DNA from: a virus
Taxonomy: Duplodnaviria > Heunggongvirae > Uroviricota > Caudoviricetes
Direction: 5' to 3' (one strand)
Length of the DNA stretch: 37,809 nucleotides
Virus record (IMG/VR): IMGVR_UViG_2602041644_000008
Location: 1 to 37,809 of that record
Positions 5,937 to 34,889 of the stretch are shown here, piece after piece; position 1 is the stretch's first letter, and the number at the start of each line of letters is the position of its first letter. The notes below the pieces were generated by a model that saw only the letters and a list, made by a program, of their open reading frames with translations, was not told the origin of the DNA and ran no database searches. A program made the position numbers and the translations under genes.

Positions 5937-6040
5937 GTTAAATCTCCAGATAGTCGCAGCACCCGTTGCGCCGCATATCTGGTTATTCTATTACCCAAAA
6001 AACCATATATGGATAGAAAGACTGTGAATATGAATAGATA

Positions 6041-7140: not shown

Positions 7141-7160
7141 TGCTTTTCCTCACAATAACA

Positions 7161-7268: not shown

Positions 7269-7535
7269 ATTTACATCGCACTCCTCTTGTGCCATAGTAA
7301 TTGGGCACTGGCAAAATCCAGTGCCGGGATTGGTCTCCCGGATTACTACAGAGGCACATATGCCGCATAAGCGGTTTTTTTATGTGTAAAGCGCACCTAT
7401 TCTATGGTGAGCTGTGTGGGGGCACCGAAAGGTGCGCCGGGTTCCTTTGTAGCCGGTAAGACCAACTCTGCACAGTTCACCACCATCTGATTGGTCTCAG
7501 CGGTGGTGATTAACCTAACTACAAAGGTGATCGCC

Positions 7536-20962: not shown

Positions 20963-21400
20963 TTAACCAGTTACTTTTGAGCGGATCGGGTACGGCGTAT
21001 TGGCATCAACATCCAGACTGATACCCGCAGTGAATTTGCCAGCCGTTAGTGGGCCAGTTGCGACGGAGTAGTTAACACGCAGATATCGCTGAACACCGGC
21101 AGGCACCTTTGCAGAAACAACTCGTTTACCTGCTGTCAGGGCGGTCTTTGCCAGTGCGCCACTATCATAAATAGTGGTCCATGAGCTGTTATTCTCACTC
21201 GTCTGCAACTGGATGTTTACAGTTGCCTCACCACTTGCCGTGGCGGCTTCGTTAACCAGCACCCAAAACTCAAGCGGATAACCCACGCCGATATCACGAC
21301 GTTTTCCGTCAATTGGACCGAGATCGATTACGTCAGTAGAAGCCGCGGTATTCGTAACCGCCTGAGCTTCGGAGAACATCAACAGTTTGTCGGTGATCAT
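20963..21400 (-). CDS. Hypothetical structural protein (possible capsid decoration protein)
   Basis: 145 aa, beta-rich, directly downstream of the capsid gene. Confidence 0.4.
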   Translation of the reverse strand: MITDKLLMFSEAQAVTNTAASTDVIDLGPIDGKRRDIGVGYPLEFWVLVNEAATASGEATVNIQLQTSENNSSWTTIYDSGALAKTALTAGKRVVSAKVPAGVQRYLRVNYSVATGPLTAGKFTAGISLDVDANTPYPIRSKVTG

Positions 21401-21451
21401 CTTCTTTCTCCATTAGTGGGTCTGTTACGACCCACAGGTTAATAACAGGCG

Positions 21452-22438
21452 TTACACCACGCGGGCTTCTGTTTCCAGAAGCGCATCAGTTTCACGGATT
21501 GGTACACCACGGAATGAAGTCCACCACTCGCCTTCTGTCTCTTTTACGCTGATCGCCAGAGATGTTTTCTCCAGAGATTGCAGATCAAGAGCCTGGCCTA
21601 CAGTGCGGTTCATGTAGAACACCGGGCGACCCATGCCACGATTTGGAATGCGATGCAGTGCTTTAACCATCAACTTCGCAATATTTGCGGCAGAGGATGG
21701 TTCTGAAAGATTGCTGACATCGATGTTTGCAATGCGAACAACATAACGCCAGTCACGCAGAGCAAGTCCGTTATCCCATTTGTAATGGGTACGGTAGCCT
21801 TCGTACTTGCCGCCATTAGCATCTTCCAGTGTCACCTGGCCTTTATCTTCCATCTGAATGCCAGCCTTCTGCCCTTTCGGGAAGATGCCATGCACGGTGT
21901 TTTCGCCCCACACCACTAACCAGATTGAGGTGTTATCTGTACCCGTGCCACCAGCATCAATGATGTTCTGAGCATTACCTGCAGACAGGCTGGAATAGCG
22001 GGAGGACAGTCCCATAAACTGCTGAGGGTTAACGCTGGAATCACCATAAAACAGCGTCTGCGCCATCTGCTGATTCATCGCTTCAATAAATGCGCGGTCT
22101 TCAGACAGGCGGAATTCGGCGGTATTGCCGTTCAGATCAGCCAGTGACTTATCGACTTCAGCATAGGTTTCCAGCATGCCCACGGAATCGGTTACCTGCA
22201 CTGTGGTTGATTTGCTTGGCTGTACGCCATAGTTCAGCAAACGCCAGGTAGCTGAAGGTAAACCAGAACGAATGGTGGTTTTGTGTCCGGTAGGAAGGTT
22301 CCCTTCGACAAAAGGCATATCCTGAAGGATCGGGTTAGTTTGACCGAGAAGCTCGATAATCTTATCGACTTTCCCATCTGGATCGACGCGCTTACCCCAG
22401 TCAGCCAGCGTTAGCGCAGTTAAGCCTTTAACAGCCAT
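21452..22438 (-). CDS. Major capsid protein
   Basis: 328 aa immediately after the scaffold gene; composition and position typical of HK97-fold coat proteins. Confidence 0.7.
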   Translation of the reverse strand: MAVKGLTALTLADWGKRVDPDGKVDKIIELLGQTNPILQDMPFVEGNLPTGHKTTIRSGLPSATWRLLNYGVQPSKSTTVQVTDSVGMLETYAEVDKSLADLNGNTAEFRLSEDRAFIEAMNQQMAQTLFYGDSSVNPQQFMGLSSRYSSLSAGNAQNIIDAGGTGTDNTSIWLVVWGENTVHGIFPKGQKAGIQMEDKGQVTLEDANGGKYEGYRTHYKWDNGLALRDWRYVVRIANIDVSNLSEPSSAANIAKLMVKALHRIPNRGMGRPVFYMNRTVGQALDLQSLEKTSLAISVKETEGEWWTSFRGVPIRETDALLETEARVV

Positions 22439-22452
22439 TGTTATTTCCTCTC

Positions 22453-23154
22453 TTATTTGCCATAGAGCACTTCGGCCGCACTACGCTGGCCTTCATTACC
22501 ACCGGTGACCATGCCATCTTCAGACATCGCCTTTCCGATTTTCACGAACGTTTTGACCAGATCAGGGTGATTACCCAGCCCGGTGGTGTTCAGATATTCT
22601 TTGAGTTCAGGTGTCCCGAACTGGTCAAGCGCACGCTGTGCGGCGCTAAGGTTAGAAATCAACTTGTCGCCACCGATTTCTTTGTCAGCTTTTACATCAG
22701 CAGCCCACTGCTCGGTTGTTTTCTGCCAGGCTTCTGCCTGGCGCTGCTGAACACCTGCCAGAATCTTCGGATAAGCATCAACCAGCTTTTGCGCTTGCTC
22801 GTTGGTCAGGTTAAGTTCTCGCGCCACCGGCTCGAATTCCTTCAACGCTTCTGTATCCAGCTCTACGCCTTCGGCAGCCTGAAACTCGTACTTCTCCGGC
22901 GCACCATCCGGTTTATCGCCGTCCTTTTTTTCACCCTGCTTATCGCTTTCAGGCTTTTTGTCATCAGCAGGTTTATCGCCATCAGCAACAGGTTGCGGCT
23001 TATCACCTTCTTGTTGTGATGGATCACCAACTGGAGCATGGTTATCACCTGCAGGCGCTGACGGTTCTGACGCAGCCGGAGCTGCTCCACCATCGACTGG
23101 TTGCTCATTGCAAAGACGGCGATACAGCAAACGCTCAAATAAATTCATGATCAC
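22453..23154 (-). CDS. Scaffolding protein
   Basis: Acidic, Pro/Asp/Lys-rich low-complexity N-terminal half plus helical C-terminal half; between portal and capsid. Confidence 0.6.
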   Translation of the reverse strand: MIMNLFERLLYRRLCNEQPVDGGAAPAASEPSAPAGDNHAPVGDPSQQEGDKPQPVADGDKPADDKKPESDKQGEKKDGDKPDGAPEKYEFQAAEGVELDTEALKEFEPVARELNLTNEQAQKLVDAYPKILAGVQQRQAEAWQKTTEQWAADVKADKEIGGDKLISNLSAAQRALDQFGTPELKEYLNTTGLGNHPDLVKTFVKIGKAMSEDGMVTGGNEGQRSAAEVLYGK

Positions 23155-23447
23155 TCCTGTTCACTGGCCTCTTTGGCCATCTTCAAATACTGTTCAGGGC
23201 AATGCGCCATAACGCGCTGAAACAGTTCCAGCGCCAGATTGCGTTGCCCCTCATTAAATGCCATTGCCATAGCGTCCATCGGTGAGATAGCGGAAAACAC
23301 ACGGCCTTTCTCCAGCACCGACCAGACAACGCGACGCCCCTGTTCACTGCTCATGACAAAGCGAATGTCATCAATTTCACGCTGCGCCATGTCACGTTGC
23401 TTACGGGCGTTTTCTTCTTTCAGTTGATCGTCTTCGTAATCTGTCAT
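23151..23447 (-). CDS. Small head-morphogenesis protein of unknown function
   Basis: 98 aa, charged; overlaps portal stop and scaffold start. Confidence 0.45.
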   Translation of the reverse strand: MTDYEDDQLKEENARKQRDMAQREIDDIRFVMSSEQGRRVVWSVLEKGRVFSAISPMDAMAMAFNEGQRNLALELFQRVMAHCPEQYLKMAKEASEQE

Positions 23448-25123
23448 TGTGATTGCCCACCCTGACCACTAACTGCATTCGCCATAGCTGACAAAACACT
23501 CGGATCCGAAGTTTTAGCTTCGCTTAGCGTCTTGGCACCCTGTGCCGCCGCCATCCCCATCGCCATCATTTGTTGCTGCTGTTGCTGCTGTGCCCGTTGC
23601 TGGCGAGCCTGCTCAACCTGTTCCTGCGGAACAATGACGGTTGGAGACACTCCGGACATATCAGCGAATGCATCGATCGCCTGATCAACGTTGAGTTTGT
23701 CGAGAGCTTCTGGTTTCGCTTGCGCAAGTTGACCAATGAAGTTGACCGTAGACGCCAGACTGGACAGGCCGATAGACTTCTGCGCCTGAGCCATGACGGA
23801 AATGTATTCGACCTTCAGGGGCATACCTTCCATCGCGTCAGGCGGTGGCGGCAGCATGTTTTTACGCACCATCATCGAGAAAGAGCGGTCAATGAGAGGA
23901 TTAAGACATTCGTCGTTCAGACGCTCCAGAACCGGCCCCAACATCAGAAGTTTTTCTTCTTTCATTTCGATCACCGCTTCAACAGGCATCGAGCGGGTAT
24001 TGATGTTCTGCAACATCATGAACAGATCGACAAAGTAGGCGCTGTTAATGATTTGACGAGTGTCCTGAATGTCTGCTACCAAATCTGCTGTACTGGGGTT
24101 AACCAGATAAGCAGGCCTGAAGCCATCCTGACCAGTAATCTGATCGATATACGTGATGTCGCCAGGAAGAAGGGAGGCGCGCTGATTCTTGAGGGAAATC
24201 GGAGCAACCATCGGCGGATTGGTGGCTTTATCAATCAACTGCGACTTGCGCTTCTGGAGAAGCTGCAATGCCTTAACAGGTCCAAGCGCCAGCATACCCG
24301 GGCATGATGATCCATAAACATCTTCGCCGTTAACTTCCCAGCGCGGAGCCATAATTGGAAACTCATCGAATCCGGACTCACGCAACAACTTGTCGTTATC
24401 GCCACCAACCTCGTAATAAACCGATTTGAATGGCTTGTTCTTGCTATCCAGCTTCGATGTATCGCGGTCAATGTTCGGGTAAACCGAATGCATCACTTCA
24501 ATCCACTTCTCGTAGGTGCCGCTTTCCCACATGCTTTTTACGGATTCGCTGACGTTATTTAGCCCGAACTCCTGAACAAGCTGACGAACAGTCATAGAGA
24601 ACTTGCGAAAACAGGTGTCCACACTGCCACGAGGTGAGTTAGCCAGGTAGTAACTGCCTATCGGGAATGGCATTGTGCGAATGATGTCCTCGTCATCCTC
24701 CAGCACTGCCATTGCACCAGTGCTGTATGTGCCGAGGCTTCCGTATAACTGCGGCAGCGACTGATAGAGATTCGACTTATTGAACATATCGTTCATGCGG
24801 TTCTGCACCGCCTCAAGCCACAACTTAACAGGGCCATAATCCATCATTTCAGGATCTGGCGTAGCCAGGCGAAACCACGGACGCGCGGGGCTTGTGATGC
24901 CTGACATCATGCCGCTGGCGAGAGTGCGCGCCGCCATAGTCCCGGTCGAATCAATAATGCGTGTATTGCGTCGATCGTTACGGTTGACCTCAGAAGTCAG
25001 AAAGCGGGAACCACGCGGGTTGATGTAATCACTCAACTCGCGCCAGTGCGGCTCGAACGACTGACGCTCGCTTTCAAGTTGTGCGAACTGTTTGTTCAAT
25101 CGCTCTTTAGTTGTTTCCGCCAT
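23444..25123 (-). CDS. Portal (head-to-tail connector) protein, podovirus type
   Basis: 559 aa with Gln/Ala-rich C-terminal tail typical of T7-type connectors; placed between terminase and scaffold. Confidence 0.7.
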   Translation of the reverse strand: MAETTKERLNKQFAQLESERQSFEPHWRELSDYINPRGSRFLTSEVNRNDRRNTRIIDSTGTMAARTLASGMMSGITSPARPWFRLATPDPEMMDYGPVKLWLEAVQNRMNDMFNKSNLYQSLPQLYGSLGTYSTGAMAVLEDDEDIIRTMPFPIGSYYLANSPRGSVDTCFRKFSMTVRQLVQEFGLNNVSESVKSMWESGTYEKWIEVMHSVYPNIDRDTSKLDSKNKPFKSVYYEVGGDNDKLLRESGFDEFPIMAPRWEVNGEDVYGSSCPGMLALGPVKALQLLQKRKSQLIDKATNPPMVAPISLKNQRASLLPGDITYIDQITGQDGFRPAYLVNPSTADLVADIQDTRQIINSAYFVDLFMMLQNINTRSMPVEAVIEMKEEKLLMLGPVLERLNDECLNPLIDRSFSMMVRKNMLPPPPDAMEGMPLKVEYISVMAQAQKSIGLSSLASTVNFIGQLAQAKPEALDKLNVDQAIDAFADMSGVSPTVIVPQEQVEQARQQRAQQQQQQQMMAMGMAAAQGAKTLSEAKTSDPSVLSAMANAVSGQGGQSQ

Positions 25124-25137
25124 TTCAATGACTCCGG

Positions 25138-25344
25138 TTACTGACCAAGCAGCGTTTTACCGCTGGTATTAGCGGTTGATGTGTCACCCTGAGAACCGGT
25201 AAGCAGCGTAGAACTACGACCAGCAGCAGCGCGACGGCGACGTGTTTCTTCGTCGCGGGCATCAACAACGGCGGCATCCTGCTCCTGTGGTGCTGCCTGA
25301 ACTTCTGGTGTTGCAGGCACTGATGGTGAGCTACCCATGCACAT
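25138..25344 (-). CDS. Small low-complexity ORF upstream of portal (uncertain)
   Basis: 68 aa, Ala/Thr/Arg-rich; SD GGAG ~10 nt upstream; may be 5' leader instead. Confidence 0.25.
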   Translation of the reverse strand: MCMGSSPSVPATPEVQAAPQEQDAAVVDARDEETRRRRAAAGRSSTLLTGSQGDTSTANTSGKTLLGQ

Positions 25345-25433
25345 ATCAATGACTCCGTACGCAATTAAATTATTACCAATTTAACCACATATGATTTATT
25401 TATCGTAGATAATTGACATTTAACGCACGAGTT

Positions 25434-25448
25434 ATTACCTTTCAGGTA
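25434..25448. promoter_or_regulatory. Operator-like palindrome TTACC-TTTCA-GGTAA (copy 5)
   Basis: Perfect inverted repeat ~90 bp upstream of the portal-side operon; TTGACA hexamer 17 bp upstream on the plus strand. Confidence 0.55.
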
Positions 25449-25771
25449 AGCAAAGAGTTCATTCCGGTTATTAACCTGACTGGCTTGTCGTTAAATTGAA
25501 CAGGTGGAGTGAGCTTTTATTTTGAGCAGTACGGCGTATGGCACATGCGCCGATAGCGGTCTGGATACGTTTAAGGGGTACCCTCCCTTGCTCGGGCAAA
25601 CGAACCAGGTAGCCGGAATGTGCAAGTCGAGCGGTTTTATTCCGCGCACGGGGATTCACCATCCCGGCGATTCGGTGTGACGCCTCGGAAGAGACGAGGG
25701 TACAACGATGAGAGCATTTATGGAGCCGCGACAAAGTGTGGCGCCTTAACAGGCTAAGTGCTCTCAGCGTT

Positions 25772-25848
25772 GTGGCATTAGCTCAGTTGGACAGAGCAAC
25801 CGCCTTCTAAGCGGTTGGTTGCAGGTTCGAATCCTGCATGCCACGCCA
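25772..25848 (+). tRNA. tRNA-Arg (anticodon UCU)
   Basis: 77 nt; acceptor stem GTGGCAT/ATGCCAC, D-stem GCTC/GAGC, anticodon stem ACCGC/GCGGT with loop CTTCTAA (anticodon TCT), T-arm GCAGG-TTCGAAT-CCTGC, discriminator G and encoded CCA. Confidence 0.85.
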
Positions 25849-25891
25849 GAATCACGCCTAAGGACCGTGATGCCAGAAGTTCCAGGTGCTT

Positions 25892-25934
25892 GGCGGTGAC
25901 AGTTTCCCTTGAAGGACTATCACCGCCCTTTTTA
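25892..25934 (+). terminator. Terminator downstream of the tRNA
   Basis: GGCGGTGA ... TCACCGCC stem followed by CTTTTT. Confidence 0.5.
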
Positions 25935-26046
25935 CAGCAGGACGCCATTGCGATGACTTCATGCTGTAAACCCGTACAGCCACGGAAGGCATAACTCATT
26001 GCTTCCAGTTCGCCCGGTTCGCCGGGCATTTTTTTAAGGTGAGATT

Positions 26047-26403
26047 ATGAACGACCAGCAAATCGAAAAAGAAATCGTTGAGAAAGGCAAAACCGCTCCG
26101 CGAGTTACGCCTCAATATATCGAAAGCATCATTCTTGAAGAGCATTTCTTTACTGCTTATGACGGCATTCGTGCTGCCAATATGGGCGTTGGCGATACGT
26201 GGACAGCGCATAAATCTACAGACCTCCTTACTTTCTGCGTACTGGTGCTGAAGAATGGCTTCACCGTCACCGGAGAGAGCGCATGTGCAAGCCCGGAAAA
26301 CTTTGATGCAGAAATTGGTCGGAAGATTGCCAGGCAGAATGCTGTAAACAAAATCTGGATGCTTGAAGGTTACTTGCTGAAGCAGAAGTTAAGCGAGCAA
26401 TAA
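26047..26403 (+). CDS. Small phage accessory protein (possibly Gp49-like)
   Basis: 118 aa on the strand opposite to the flanking terminase/portal genes; family assignment from recall only. Confidence 0.45.
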   Translation: MNDQQIEKEIVEKGKTAPRVTPQYIESIILEEHFFTAYDGIRAANMGVGDTWTAHKSTDLLTFCVLVLKNGFTVTGESACASPENFDAEIGRKIARQNAVNKIWMLEGYLLKQKLSEQ

Positions 26404-26407
26404 CACC

Positions 26408-26419
26408 GTGACATGTCAC
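26408..26419. repeat. 12-bp perfect palindrome GTGACATGTCAC (copy 1)
   Basis: Exact palindrome between the small plus-strand gene and the terL 3' end; identical to copy at 28673-28684. Confidence 0.6.
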
Positions 26420-26423
26420 AAAC

Positions 26424-26450
26424 AGCCAGCCTATGAGCTGGCTTTGTTTT
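26424..26450. terminator. Terminator (plus strand; weaker on minus)
   Basis: AGCCAGC-CTATGA-GCTGGCT followed by TTGTTTT. Confidence 0.55.
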
Positions 26451-26493
26451 ATCCTCACCAGAGGATATCAACGACATTATCCCCACCAGCGGA

Positions 26494-27969
26494 TTAAGCA
26501 TAGGGATCGTAATCTGTAATGGCCTTGCCTTGCTGGTTCTGCTGACCTGGAATTCGCAGACGCTTCGACACAGGGAAAGCAAACGTCAGCAATAGCGCAT
26601 CGCCTTTACCCGGCGAACGCCCAAGCCGCTCCTTGATATCTTCCTTCGGTTCGATAACGATTTTACCGTCCACTCGAACTTTGTACTCTGCCGCCGACAG
26701 GTCGTCCGCTGTTTCCTGGTCATCAAGCATCCCGCCCAGCCTCAGCCATGTCTTGCATGAGTTGAACATCTCCCCACGCTTGTTGAGCATCTGCGGGTCA
26801 GTAGACGCGCCACCGAACGGAACAAGTTGCCATGTGCGCCCCCAACCGTCACCGATTGACTTCAGACCGGTACCGTAACCAAAGTCGATGAACACTGCGT
26901 CAGCCTGATACAGGTCTTCAAAGTCAGCGATACGCTTCGCCATAATCAGATCGTCGGTAGTCTTGTTGCCAGTCCACAGCACCTTACTGTGTAGCCCCTG
27001 CCGCAGGTATATCACCGCGTCATCAACGCCTGAATATGCCGGGTCAACACCGATTATCACCGGAGCATGCGCCACCTGCGCAGCGGTTACCACCCGTTTC
27101 ATTGCCTCATCAGTAAGACCGGTAGGGATAAACTGCAATTCAGATGCATCAGGGAATATGCCGCGCACACGGATTTTAACGAAGTCGCTGTCTTCCCCGT
27201 AGTCATCAACCCATTTCTGCAACTGCTGTTTGTTAGTGCCTTCCACCGTCCGGCTGTCAATCTGCGCAGTTTTCCAGCGGTGTTTATATTTGCGGAAACA
27301 TTCGCGGAAACGCCCGGTGTTACGTGTAGGGTTTCCGAACGCCACCCAGATAATCTCAGTGTCTTCGTCCGTAAGCGCACCCTCAGCAACTTCCCACACC
27401 AGATCCGCAATGTTCGACGCTTCATCGAATACCACGATGATGCGTTTGCGCTCGTTGTGTAGTCCGGCGAATGCCTCAGTGTTGTGCTCAGACCAGGGTA
27501 TTGCGTCAGCCCGCCACCGCTTGTCGTGCCCAGGGTCATTGCTGTACATCGCGGTAGCGGTACAGGTAAACCAGTCTTTCGTGATAGCAAGGTTAGACCA
27601 CTTGATAATTTCCGGCCAGGTCTTCGTTCGTAGCTGGTTGTCGGTGTTAGCGGTCACCACAACCTTACAATCCTCGCAAGTGGACATGCCCCAGTTGATC
27701 AGCATTGAGATGAATGCGGATTTACCAATACCGTGACCAGAAGCGCGTGCCAGCATAAGCGGCTGATAGCGCGTCTCTGGATTCTGCAGGTGATCACGTA
27801 TCTCTCGGAACGCATCAGCCTGCCACTGACGTGGGCCGGTGGCATGTGCCAGTTCAGTCCCCTCTTCCCCCCACGGGAACGCATAGAGAGCATAGCCAAG
27901 CGGATCGTGAGTGAACCCTGCAATATCCTCGATCAACTGCTCTTCAGGAGATAACGCTGTATCTGTCAC
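26494..27969 (-). CDS. Terminase large subunit
   Basis: 491 aa; Walker A-like GHGIGKS near the N-terminus; acidic nuclease-type C-terminal half; follows terS with a 4-nt overlap. Confidence 0.8.
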   Translation of the reverse strand: MTDTALSPEEQLIEDIAGFTHDPLGYALYAFPWGEEGTELAHATGPRQWQADAFREIRDHLQNPETRYQPLMLARASGHGIGKSAFISMLINWGMSTCEDCKVVVTANTDNQLRTKTWPEIIKWSNLAITKDWFTCTATAMYSNDPGHDKRWRADAIPWSEHNTEAFAGLHNERKRIIVVFDEASNIADLVWEVAEGALTDEDTEIIWVAFGNPTRNTGRFRECFRKYKHRWKTAQIDSRTVEGTNKQQLQKWVDDYGEDSDFVKIRVRGIFPDASELQFIPTGLTDEAMKRVVTAAQVAHAPVIIGVDPAYSGVDDAVIYLRQGLHSKVLWTGNKTTDDLIMAKRIADFEDLYQADAVFIDFGYGTGLKSIGDGWGRTWQLVPFGGASTDPQMLNKRGEMFNSCKTWLRLGGMLDDQETADDLSAAEYKVRVDGKIVIEPKEDIKERLGRSPGKGDALLLTFAFPVSKRLRIPGQQNQQGKAITDYDPYA

Positions 27970-28562
27970 TGATTACCATCCTGACGTTCTTTGAGTCGCT
28001 TCCTGGCTGCCGCTATGCGATCAGCAATTGTCACATTCACATTAACATCCAGGCGTTCTTTGAACGCGTTGACATCAACATGCTTACCAATCAGCTCAAG
28101 GTTCTTCACCTTGTCAGGCCATTTAATTTTTTTGAGGATTGTCTCTATCGAATCCTCGTTCATGTTCATGATGGTCGATGACAGATCAAAGCCACTAAGC
28201 GTAGTGCGCCAGATTTTCGGCCACTCACGGATTGGTTTAAGGCTCCCATCGTCGTTGAGGATGTCGATCACGTCCATCTGGTCGATCTCCACCAGGCGCA
28301 TGAGAACGTAATCAGCACTGACGCGCATTCGTTTGTTGCGCTCCTCCATCAACTCGGCAATCCGTTTTTGAATGCGTTCATCGCGCATCATGACACTGGC
28401 TTTAACTGCCGCTGTATTTGGGGAGAATCCTGCGTTAATCGCTGCCTGAGTTTGGTTTTCAGGCGTTTTGATGTATGACTGGCAATAAGCCTCCTGCATT
28501 GTTGTTAGTGGCTTAAATTGCGTTGATTTGCGTTTATAGGTTTTAGGTTCAGCAGGCATCAT
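27966..28562 (-). CDS. Terminase small subunit
   Basis: Helical DNA-binding N-terminal region and oligomerisation-like C-terminus; start set at ATG-ATG (28562/28559) after SD GGTGG; the upstream TTG-initiated extension in the ORF track is low-complexity. Confidence 0.6.
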   Translation of the reverse strand: MMPAEPKTYKRKSTQFKPLTTMQEAYCQSYIKTPENQTQAAINAGFSPNTAAVKASVMMRDERIQKRIAELMEERNKRMRVSADYVLMRLVEIDQMDVIDILNDDGSLKPIREWPKIWRTTLSGFDLSSTIMNMNEDSIETILKKIKWPDKVKNLELIGKHVDVNAFKERLDVNVNVTIADRIAAARKRLKERQDGNQ

Positions 28563-28602
28563 AACCACCGTGGTAATAGTTACCGTTGTGGTAATAGTAC
28601 CA

Positions 28603-28631
28603 TGCAAAATAAAGCCGCCATAGTTGGCGGC
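28603..28631 (-). terminator. Terminator immediately upstream of terS (tR-prime-like)
   Basis: On the minus strand GCCGCCA-ACTA-TGGCGGC followed by TTTATTTTG. Confidence 0.45.
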
Positions 28632-28672
28632 AGTATTCAAAATCCATCAAATTCATCATGCATAATCTACTC

Positions 28673-34092: not shown

Positions 34093-34889
34093 GCTTCAGG
34101 GCTGTTCCAGTGCGGAACGTTGTTATCAGGTAATGTTGATTGCTTCTGTCTGCTAATCTGCAGCCGCCTTGCCAGCTTCTGCTCCCACTGTGCCTGATGG
34201 TATGCCCTACCCTCAGCCATCCAGTAAATTCTGAACTCTGCAAGTTCCTGTGCCGTTGGCAGACTGTCCAGGTAGATCCCCTGCAATGAGCTTTTCCGAA
34301 GAAAGTCATCTGATGGCTGCCATTGTTCATGCATGACAAATTTGCCTAATTGCCCTGGCCCACCAGGAGGAACAAAGTTATTCATCACGGCGTTGTTTGC
34401 GCCGGGGTCATGATGCACAGAATCCCCGTTTTTTGTCCTGCTCTCCCTCTCTTGGTTAAATGACTGGTTATATGACTGGTTCTGGATCCCGTTTTTGGGA
34501 TCATTCAACATCCCGTTTTTGGGATCATTCAACATCCCGTTTTTGGGTATATTCCCGTTTTCGGGAACATTACCGTTTTCGGGTTCATTACCCCCTTCCC
34601 GGTTGCCTTTAATGTTCCCGTTTTTGGTTATATTAAGAGAGAAAACCCGCACTCTTTTCGTCGCTCCCTTTCTCTCTCCGGTATCTGAAATAAGCCCCAT
34701 TTTCATGAGCGATATAAGCCCGGCCTGCACGGTTTTTTTATTCAGGCAAGTGTCTTTAACGAGGCGTTCTATGCTGGGGTAGCAGAGGTTATATTCATCG
34801 GCTCTGTCAGCCATCGAGAGCAGTATGAGCTTTAATGACGAGCTACCTGGATCTGTCTCCCAGGCCCAATCTGTTGCATGTCTGCTCAT
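34074..34889 (-). CDS. Replication initiator, lambda O-like, with internal origin iterons
   Basis: SD GGAG before the ATG; N-terminal winged-helix-like region; repetitive peptide (NGNVPENGNIPKNGMLNDPKNGMLNDPKNG) encoded by the iteron array; directly upstream of P. Confidence 0.6.
   Translation of the reverse strand: MSRHATDWAWETDPGSSSLKLILLSMADRADEYNLCYPSIERLVKDTCLNKKTVQAGLISLMKMGLISDTGERKGATKRVRVFSLNITKNGNIKGNREGGNEPENGNVPENGNIPKNGMLNDPKNGMLNDPKNGIQNQSYNQSFNQERESRTKNGDSVHHDPGANNAVMNNFVPPGGPGQLGKFVMHEQWQPSDDFLRKSSLQGIYLDSLPTAQELAEFRIYWMAEGRAYHQAQWEQKLARRLQISRQKQSTLPDNNVPHWNSPEAWEDFL
34486..34631. repeat. Origin iteron array inside the O-like gene
   Basis: Four good and two degenerate copies of ATCCCGTTTTTGGGAT-like dyad units at 18-24 bp spacing. 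Confidence 0.6.

Follow-up and report, generated by a model that had tools for sequence, protein, structure and literature searches.

Several structured RNAs have been described that bear on the one reported here. The put RNAs of phages HK022 and HK639 lie just downstream of a repressor-controlled early promoter, in the same orientation and with no obvious N gene. They are about 70 nucleotides (nt) long, form two stems, and act in cis as processive antiterminators, the nascent RNA binding its own polymerase and making it resistant to terminators in a manner that depends on the zinc-binding domain of the beta-prime subunit. The activity of put was found to be independent of a tether to the transcript (PMC9378689). 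The C4 RNA of P1 and P7, the CI RNA of P4 and MALAT1-mascRNA are regulatory RNAs obtained from a longer transcript by the tRNA-processing machinery, and each of them is joined directly to a tRNA or a tRNA-like module; in C4 and CI, RNase P makes the 5′ end. GOLLD and ROOL are large, ornate and conserved phage or prophage non-coding RNAs of unknown function, about 580-800 nt long, which occur mainly in other bacterial groups and often stand beside tRNA genes. In the dicB operon of the Escherichia coli K-12 prophage Qin, a repressor gene and an early-left operon are combined with untranslated RNA modules that end in the DicF hairpin and terminator. In the present work, we analysed a stretch of 37,809 nt (IMG/VR record IMGVR_UViG_2602041644_000008, positions 1 to 37,809), hereafter the window, which is a phiV10/epsilon15-like (Uetakevirus) prophage. 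Between the terminase and portal genes of the window lies an island of opposite orientation, in which positions 25529-25771 of the plus strand encode a 243-nt structured RNA that ends directly at a tRNA-Arg gene.

Compared with these systems, the window RNA resembles put in its location, in conserved loops that suggest a host machine as partner, and in the string ACGGCG...CAUGCGUCG, which its first hairpin shares with putL. It differs from put in its length among relatives (165-245 nt), in its seven helices and two pseudoknots (one supported, the other putative), in occurring as one copy per phage, and in being present also in P1, in Uetakeviruses and in a Klebsiella Lastavirus. As with C4, CI and MALAT1, we propose that it is released from a longer transcript by tRNA processing; since its tRNA stands on the 3′ side, it is the 3′ end that RNase P would make, as in MALAT1. 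GOLLD and ROOL share its position beside tRNA genes and exceed it in length, and no Rfam family matches it. With the Qin dicB operon the shared features are the repressor gene, the early-left operon and the terminal DicF-type hairpin, whereas Qin is devoid of the RNA core and the window hairpin scores below the DicF threshold. We propose that the island encodes an early RNA cassette. Its first product would be excised by tRNA-processing enzymes and would then work, as a stable RNA, on a host factor that is conserved, a reading that we consider about equally likely to be right or wrong.

A conserved fold in the non-coding stretch

An earlier, sequence-only reading of the window had described 25450-25771 as non-coding, without a convincing open reading frame (ORF), and as a possible site of a tRNA leader, a degenerate tRNA or a small RNA. 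We found no reading frame conserved across family members, in line with the first claim. The second stood insofar as the stretch does hold an RNA, which is neither a tRNA leader nor a degenerate tRNA nor a short small RNA; instead, a multi-helix RNA of 243 nt, with helices P1-P7, the pseudoknot PK2 and a putative pseudoknot PK1, occupies 25529-25771. All features below are on the plus strand unless stated otherwise. A degenerate tRNA was ruled out for 25450-25771, as neither ARAGORN nor the Rfam tRNA model found anything there.

The fold was assessed in an alignment for which family matches were dereplicated to 40 sequences at 95% identity and 29 of them, the window included, were aligned. Standard pairs made up 95.8% of the pair cells in the 29 members, as against 27-46% when the 3′ partners were slid by 1-3 columns, and the covariation score was 0.240 as against 0.02-0.06 in these slid controls. 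Both sides had changed in ten pairs, amounting to 63 cells. None of 500 shuffles matched the observed paired percentage, the both-sided cell count or the covariation score; the number of both-sided pairs was reached by 2 of the 500, and the count of further pair types was unremarkable. By the summed per-pair counts, about 98 pair cells were G-U, which on the other strand would be A-C mismatches, and the folded strand is therefore the strand of the tRNA. The 408 nt from P1 to the DicF-like hairpin downstream of the tRNA had a folding z of -4.1. These results demonstrate that 25529-25771 is a real structured RNA with one covariation-supported and one putative pseudoknot.

The first helix, the P1 hairpin (25532-25552), pairs CGGCGU (25532-25537) with GCGCCG (25547-25552) around the loop AUGGCACAU. 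Its pair 25536/25548 is G-C in 16 members and A-U in 12, and the other P1 pairs show one-sided changes or are invariant. In P2 (25557-25615), where CGG-UCUG (25557-25563) pairs with CAGG..CCG (25606-25615), two pairs are compensatory, one going from C-G to U-A in 9 of the 29 sequences and one from G-C to A-U in 2. Enclosed by P2 is P3 (25564-25605), a variable domain whose insert ranges from about 25 to 45 nt among members. An invariant 19-mer, GGUAGCCGGAAUGUGCAAG (as DNA GGTAGCCGGAATGTGCAAG), occupies 25608-25626 and recurs as exact matches across the databases; anchoring the search elsewhere in the element yielded only single-base variants of it. Next comes P4 (25631-25645; GCGG UUUUAUU CCGC), a hairpin seen in minimum-free-energy folds that varies in length and sequence. 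P5 (25651-25654 with 25662-25665, loop UUCACCA) has compensatory changes in three of its four pairs. Covariation supports PK2 (25657-25677), a pairing of the loop bases CACC (25657-25660) of P5 with GGUG (25674-25677): the pair 25657/25677 changes from C-G to A-U in 3 members, turning CACC/GGUG into AACC/GGUU. The P6 hairpin (25683-25699; CCUCG-GAAGAGA-CGAGG, 25683-25687 with 25695-25699) has three compensatory pairs. Finally, P7 (25702-25773) is a long closing hairpin, recognized from predicted folds and from its variants, with a base helix of ACAACGAUGAGAGCA (25702-25716) and UGCUCUCAGCGUUGU (25759-25773). This base helix occurs in 34 distinct variants; of those that fit best, most have 15 of 16 positions paired and contain compensated blocks. 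The last two bases of P7 are the first two bases of the tRNA-Arg. The putative PK1 (25541-25623), proposed by RNAalifold, would pair GCACAU (25541-25546) with AUGUGC (25618-25623). An upper P1 pair that competes with it, 25538/25546, is broken in 5 of the 29 members, and rare PK1 variants (C to U in locus L015, A to G in L158) retain wobble pairing.

We also considered whether the conservation could reflect a site acting at the DNA level, such as a recombination boundary, an origin or a packaging site, or a gene for a small protein. The element does lie at mosaic joints between phage modules, and hypothetical ORFs are annotated across it in some GenBank records (mEp460_037 and Tyrion). Compensatory changes with many G-U pairs confined to one strand speak for RNA folding instead. 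Moreover, several members have stops in all six frames, length differences are not multiples of three, the variable columns show no 3-periodicity and no frame is conserved. The protein-coding reading is thus effectively refuted, and we regard this whole group of explanations as extremely improbable.

Distribution of the RNA

A covariance model, R1, was built from the 29-sequence alignment, the window sequence being one of the 29; on the window it gave 158 bits at 25529-25721 as a single copy. On the related loci tested it gave 115-181 bits, except for a few truncated copies (41 bits for epsilon15-type remnants). The window carries the features of the family, namely P1, P2, P5, PK2, P6 and the invariant GGUAGCCGGAAUGUGCAAG and GGCG-N4-GGUGUGAC segments. 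Rfam 15, including the C4 clan, GOLLD, ROOL, Y RNA, transfer-messenger RNA (tmRNA), ribozymes and riboswitches, had no match in 25450-25771 at E<=10; in nine related loci the element likewise had none at E<=1. Weak matches to DicF and RyhB, seen at permissive thresholds in the region and the nine loci, were at chance level, and only the tRNA was matched. No sequence or model similarity to the C4 clan was present in 25450-25771, ARAGORN found no tmRNA in the window, and the Pas small RNAs proved to be unrelated to the element. The conserved 12- and 14-mers were not printed in the literature searched; a very recent report of the RNA may exist.

The 245 bases directly 5′ of the tRNA match, at about 80-83% identity, unannotated intergenic DNA of quite different phages. 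In lambdoid prophages of the CPS-53/mEp460 type the match lies between the CI-like repressor gene and yfdP, and in P1 and P1-like plasmids between tRNA-Ile(CAT) and ban. A sensitive search found the element in 86 GenBank phages, among them P1, P7, D6, SJ46, RCS47, mEp460, mEp390, cdtI and Ayreon, Stx2c and Stx2a converting phages, Klebsiella phages and a Stenotrophomonas phage. The exact 19-mer was present in at least 120 IMG/VR contigs and in 24 contigs of species-representative genomes, 22 of them from twelve Enterobacterales genera and 2 from Bacillota bins of metagenome-assembled genomes, one of which (L141) was not confirmed by R1. Among 5426 complete E. coli genomes, 1840 (34%) carried the core, in 2474 places, 554 of these on plasmids; in the 25 E. 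coli matches listed, no annotated feature lay under the core. To judge from these matches, the RNA belongs to a large and widespread family that is not described so far and is unannotated in the records examined.

In phage types as unrelated as P1, the lambdoids, the Uetakeviruses and the Klebsiella Lastavirus, the unpaired segments do not vary, which points to a conserved host partner rather than a phage protein. A second copy was found neither within the window nor on the rightward-operon side of relatives, apart from a tandem pair in one viral contig (L028, 3977-4155 and 4784-4960), whose copies lie on the same strand about 800 nt apart, and some weak P6-like repeats; L028 was the only searched locus with a second significant copy. 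The P6-like repeats consist of UGAC, a stem, a GAAAGA or GAAGAG loop and the closing stem. Such modules occur upstream and downstream of the element in the Stenotrophomonas phage BUCT708 (L007, 2370-2946) and downstream in L155 and L157, and are reminiscent of repeated protein-binding hairpins such as boxB.

Genomic settings and the junction with tRNA

The element was found in three settings. Most loci are lambdoid, and there the element lies downstream of the CI-like repressor gene and on its strand; the repressor's terminator comes first, then an operator and promoter copy and then the element, which therefore heads the early-left operon. In P1 and its relatives it stands within the C1-controlled ban operon, separated by about 10 nt from the preceding tRNA(CAT) and by about 70 nt from ban on its other side. 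In Uetakeviruses an operator and promoter precede it, and its direction is opposite to that of the late genes. The operator and promoter copies are 30-100 nt upstream of the element in lambdoids, and just upstream in the window as well.

For the region behind P6 we compared 63 distinct units. P7 was present in 46. A genuine tRNA-Arg(UCU), starting 4 nt into the conserved GUUGUGG, followed in 10 units of diverged types, while a tRNA-like module took its place in at least 17. This module combines an acceptor-like helix of 7 bp (UGUGGUG/CACCACA) with a D-like hairpin (GCGCA-GGCUGA-UGCGC) and, behind a variable insert, a T-like one (GCCGG-AGAUCAGCA-CCGGC); its tail is nearly A-CCA, and three such modules fold as cloverleaves. 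They stand directly after GTTGTGG in L017, L019, L008, L148, L074 and others, with inserts of 25-140 nt, and the L017 module has an anticodon-like loop, CUUUUAA. On the 3′ side of the tRNA or tRNA-like domain, 26 of the 63 units share the motif ATCACG(5-10 nt)CGTGRT, represented in the window by the P9 hairpin AUCACG-CCUAAGGAC-CGUGAU (25851-25871). A DicF-like hairpin with a U-run comes next in 29 of 63. The ends of the RNA thus coincide with tRNA-processing sites in three architectures: at a 3′ tRNA-Arg, at the 5′ tRNA(CAT) of P1 and at the tRNA-like modules. At four loci (L090, L034, L047 and L160) a small hairpin stands in place of P7, and an rrn-type boxA, UGCUCUUUAACAA or nearly so, comes next, some 120-135 nt behind the 19-mer; this pair right behind P6 resembles a nut-like site.

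The variety of what follows P6 bears on two further explanations. One is a self-cleaving ribozyme or riboswitch-like sensor that would process or gate the early transcript. The size of the RNA, its pseudoknots and its highly conserved unpaired nucleotides do resemble large ribozymes and aptamers, and alternative pairings exist around P1 and PK1. As P6 is followed by P7, a gene, boxA or a tRNA, there is no consistent expression platform; the downstream genes are mutually unrelated, unlike riboswitch regulons, and no known ribozyme or riboswitch model matches. The variable context after P6 and the unrelated downstream genes place the element outside the riboswitches, and we judge a ribozyme or sensor of either kind to be very improbable. 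The other is a passive structured leader or scaffold that shields the 5′ end from RNase E or Rho, or aids the maturation of the tRNA or of the DicF-like RNA, with no activity of its own. The element does sit at the 5′ end of long untranslated stretches otherwise open to Rho and RNase E, and the sequence-only reading had itself suggested a tRNA leader. A passive leader, however, needs no invariant 19-nt single-stranded segment, no pseudoknots and no seven-helix fold kept across phages of Enterobacterales and Xanthomonadales, and the element occurs with neither tRNA nor small RNA downstream in L071 and P1. This explanation seems to us quite improbable.

In epsilon15 (L006, 1548-1634; also L165, 6960-7046) a deletion from inside P3 to the DicF-like hairpin has removed the RNA core and the tRNA and left P1, one terminator and an intact Acb4-like gene (see below), and the RNA is thus not an obligatory cis element for the downstream gene. 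At this deletion, the record of epsilon15 has an 'RNaseIII' site annotated on the other strand. In P1 (L004) the annotated 'dicF-like region' (269-370, 332-360) holds the one strong intrinsic terminator that the ban operon has. This terminator stands some 180 nt behind Pban and precedes the tRNAs as well as the element, which lies about 2.1 kb further downstream.

These observations also bear on the main rival to a stable RNA acting on a host factor, namely a put-like cis-acting processive antiterminator. The nascent RNA would here bind its own polymerase and allow expression of the genes behind the DicF-like and other terminators, and it may stay on the polymerase after the RNase P cut, in keeping with the tether-free activity of put. 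In lambdoids and in the window the element lies in the predicted leader just behind an early promoter under repressor control, and in lambdoids this place, next to the early-left promoter and operator on their downstream side, is that of putL. Among the first downstream genes sampled, none was N-like. Two intrinsic terminators precede the Acb4-like gene in the window, with no promoter detected between, and DicF-like terminator hairpins follow the element in the 29 units counted above; the boxA directly after P6 in some loci, the invariant loops, which fit a conserved host machine, and the string shared with putL add to this side. On the other hand, R1 gave no match at E<=10 to HK022 (L010, L011) or HK639 (L132, with an annotated putL-like antiterminator RNA), and BLAST and motif searches against put found no similarity beyond the short first-hairpin string; together with the differences in size and helix number, these results leave the RNA outside the put family by sequence and structure. 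In P1 the one strong terminator lies upstream of the element, which cannot help there, epsilon15 has lost the RNA and kept the gene behind a terminator, and the single copy per phage would leave nothing for the rightward operon. Downstream intrinsic terminators are clear in tRNA-containing units, but many lambdoid units have none within 1.2 kb by a strict scan, which misses hairpins with only four U. All in all, we consider a put-like element rather unlikely.

The DicF-like hairpin of the window (25881-25928) scores 14.7 bits against Rfam DicF (RF00039), whose gathering threshold is 48, and so falls outside that family. Over 25881-25933 the window aligns with K-12 dicF in the stems and flanks, whereas the loop and the 'seed' differ. 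In K-12 Qin (L171, 5160-5440) the spacer between ydfC and dicF contains a P7-like helix, GGUUGUGG and about 100 nt that hardly differ from the domain behind P7 in lambdoid units of the L064/L001 type. Qin, the prophage of K-12 that this search covered, has no P1-P6 core. From its sequence, K-12 DicF looks like the tail of a decapitated copy of the cassette.

Layout of the island

The region is 92-98% identical to phiV10, the O157 typing phages 9 and 10 and related Uetakevirus prophages, whose RefSeq order is terminase, Gp49 family protein, tRNA-Arg, hypothetical protein, portal. Among the records listed, no feature is annotated in the equivalent of 25450-25771, bar one tRNA-Arg that overlaps its 3′ edge. 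The sequence-only reading had recognized a plus-strand unit interrupting the late genes, and we found the island as described, consisting of an accessory gene and a genuine tRNA-Arg gene (UCU) behind an operator and promoter of their own, between terL (26494-27969) on one side and a 68-aa gp3 homologue (25138-25344) and the portal gene (23444-25123) on the other, all three on the minus strand. Two further points of that reading were not borne out. The stretch is not distinctively GC-rich, its GC content of 0.55-0.58 at 25500-25800 lying within the rough range of the flanking genes (0.50-0.59); what deviates is the promoter region alone (25350-25450), which is AT-rich (0.33). Nor is the island an insertion peculiar to this phage, for it is the Uetakevirus version of a cassette common to lambdoid and P1-like phages, in which the structured RNA is followed by a tRNA or tRNA-like domain and a DicF-like hairpin.

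At the 5′ edge, where an operator copy and a TTGACA had been noticed before, the palindromic repressor operator ATTACCTTTCAGGTAA (25434-25449, strandless) overlaps the -10 region of a candidate sigma-70 promoter (TTGACA at 25413-25418, a 17-nt spacer and TACCTT at 25436-25441). The promoter was read from the sequence and its function is predicted; a simple consensus promoter scan missed it, the -10 hexamer being weak. Clearer promoters stand at the same place in lambdoid relatives (TTGACC-17-GATACT in L071; TTGACA in L009), and the epsilon15 record annotates a 'repressor, lysogeny' binding site at the place equivalent to the operator. The ATTACCTTnnAGGTAA palindrome has six copies in the window, at 6040, 7160, 7253, 8300, 25434 and 36344, and the copies outside the island adjoin the isrK/C4 immunity region and other early promoters. 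Behind those at 7160 and 7253, isrK (74.7 bits) and the C4 antisense RNA (78.2 bits, 7400-7487) stand in tandem at 7305-7487; here a Uetakevirus prophage carries an immI (c4-icd-ant) region of the P1 type, and mEp460 has the same pair.

From the predicted start, a leader of about 80 nt (25450-25528) extends to helix P1, conserved among Uetakeviruses including epsilon15 (query positions 45-127 matched). The terminators reported for the unit are present as three terminator-like plus-strand hairpins. The first (25892-25933) belongs to the DicF-like hairpin and U-run (25881-25933; hairpin -18 kcal/mol). The second (26012-26035), GCCCGGTTCGCCGGGC followed by T7, lies directly 5′ of the ribosome-binding site of the accessory gene, and epsilon15 has an annotated terminator at the equivalent place. 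The third (26424-26450) closes the unit, and phiV10 has an annotated terminator at the same place.

The tRNA-Arg (25772-25848, anticodon UCU, CCA encoded) is the sole tRNA that ARAGORN called in the window, and the Rfam tRNA model (RF00005) gave 73.2 bits as against a gathering score of 29, with full-length coverage, in agreement with its earlier recognition. In the ORFs of the window, AGA and AGG are used at 7.5 and 6.0 per 1000 codons and make up 22% of the Arg codons; in E. coli, their usage is about 2 and 1 per 1000. The codon supply suggested before is thus plausible and a reasonable role for the tRNA. Both codons are nearly absent from the head, portal and terminase genes (20963-28640) and reach 18-37 per 1000 in the tail and early genes, so that the tRNA, if it is of benefit, would not benefit all parts of the genome equally. 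The fixed junction between the tRNA and P7 suggests that it also serves as a processing signal.

The 118-aa gene noted earlier was confirmed at 26047-26403. Its product matches Pfam PF13876, the Acb4 (anti-CBASS 4) or Phage_gp49_66 family, with 118.7 bits (cut-off 27; E=1.6e-34) over model positions 1-82 of 82, and RefSeq calls close homologues 'Gp49 family protein'. PF13876 has been defined as Acb4, a tetrameric sponge for the cyclic dinucleotides of CBASS, and all eight homologues tested bound 3′3′-cGAMP (Chang et al., bioRxiv 10.1101/2024.12.30.630793). Apart from the PF13876 match, which is above threshold, the window protein matches the structure of Acb4 from Bacillus phage SPO1 weakly (PDB 9e4w, E=0.006), and it differs from SPO1 Acb4 by an N-terminal extension beyond the aligned region. 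By homology, then, the protein is an Acb4-family member, and its action as a cyclic-dinucleotide sponge is predicted by family only. In sister loci the same slot holds Tad2-like proteins (PF11195; L084, L044), RdgC, Ban in P1 or proteins of unknown PHROGs; the Acb4-like protein showed no similarity to the Tad2-like ones. Judged by these contents, the unit looks like an early operon for accessory and anti-defence functions, headed by a conserved RNA and ending in protein genes that vary.

Elsewhere in the window, at 34486-34635, three to four direct repeats of the 24-nt unit ATCCCGTTTTTGGGATCATTCAAC and related copies resemble iterons, and a replication origin may lie there.

Discussion

The island would, in our interpretation, be a repressor-controlled early transcription unit that opposes the structural genes, starting just behind its operator. 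Once the repressor leaves the operator at 25434-25449, host RNA polymerase would transcribe, in order, the leader of about 80 nt, the 243-nt RNA, the tRNA-Arg(UCU), the small hairpin, the DicF-like hairpin and terminator, the second terminator and the Acb4-family gene. A cut by RNase P at 25771/25772 would create the 5′ end of the tRNA and, at the foot of P7, the 3′ end of the RNA, while in P1 the 3′ processing of the upstream tRNA would define the 5′ side of the RNA. For the non-decoding tRNA-like modules, a cleavage signal would be the most economical use. With helices at both ends and invariant loops, the released stable RNA would then bind a conserved host component early in lytic growth, and would act in trans within an operon for host takeover and anti-defence. 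The leading single candidate for its target is the transcription elongation complex.

Several observations favour an independent RNA of this kind over a leader acting in cis. Its ends fall at sites of tRNA processing; unrelated phages, with hosts but few proteins in common, have identical loops in it; further RNA genes, the tRNA and the DicF-like hairpin, stand beside it; phages of the epsilon15 type have lost the RNA core and tRNA and kept the Acb4-like gene; and the strong terminator of the P1 ban operon lies upstream of the element.

Other observations weigh against the proposal. The element is always co-oriented with the downstream genes and, except in P1 and SopranoGao, promoter-proximal, and this arrangement fits a cis-acting leader at least as well. 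Some loci have neither P7 nor a tRNA-like module, and a gene begins about 30 nt behind P6 (L071), while in P1 ban starts about 70 nt after P6; the 3′ end of the RNA cannot come from RNase P in such loci. The tRNA-like domains were detected neither by ARAGORN nor by the Rfam tRNA model, and they would be candidate RNase P substrates on shape alone. The six pairs of PK1 are invariant in all 29 sequences, so that covariation cannot support this pseudoknot. Lastly, no candidate target of the RNA was identified.

The annotated parts of the island are ordinary, a tRNA for the rare AGA and AGG codons and an anti-CBASS gene of the Acb4 family; the non-coding stretch is the interesting part. That it is transcribed first after derepression, has invariant loops, is fused to a tRNA or tRNA-like module, and keeps company with DicF-like RNA and with anti-CBASS and anti-Thoeris-like genes suggests a role in the earliest lytic steps. 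More tentatively, the RNA could represent a new class of phage effector, excised by RNase P through a fused tRNA or tRNA-like module and acting in trans on a host machine, a possibility that we hold to be real but doubtful. If true, such an RNA might disarm a defence system, reprogramme RNA polymerase, Rho or RNases, or protect the tRNA pool, and it would be the RNA counterpart of the protein anti-defence genes of the operon (Acb4 and Tad2-like).

In summary, our results would add a missing gene to some of the best-studied genomes, as the element is carried by P1, Stx-converting phages, lambdoids of the CPS-53/mEp460 type, the O157 typing phages and about a third of complete E. coli genomes. 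Being compact and highly conserved, the RNA is well suited to structure determination and to pull-down experiments that aim at its partner. Through it one may approach the question of how lambdoid phages without N run their early operons, and it may explain the placement of phage tRNAs and the origin of the DicF precursor region.

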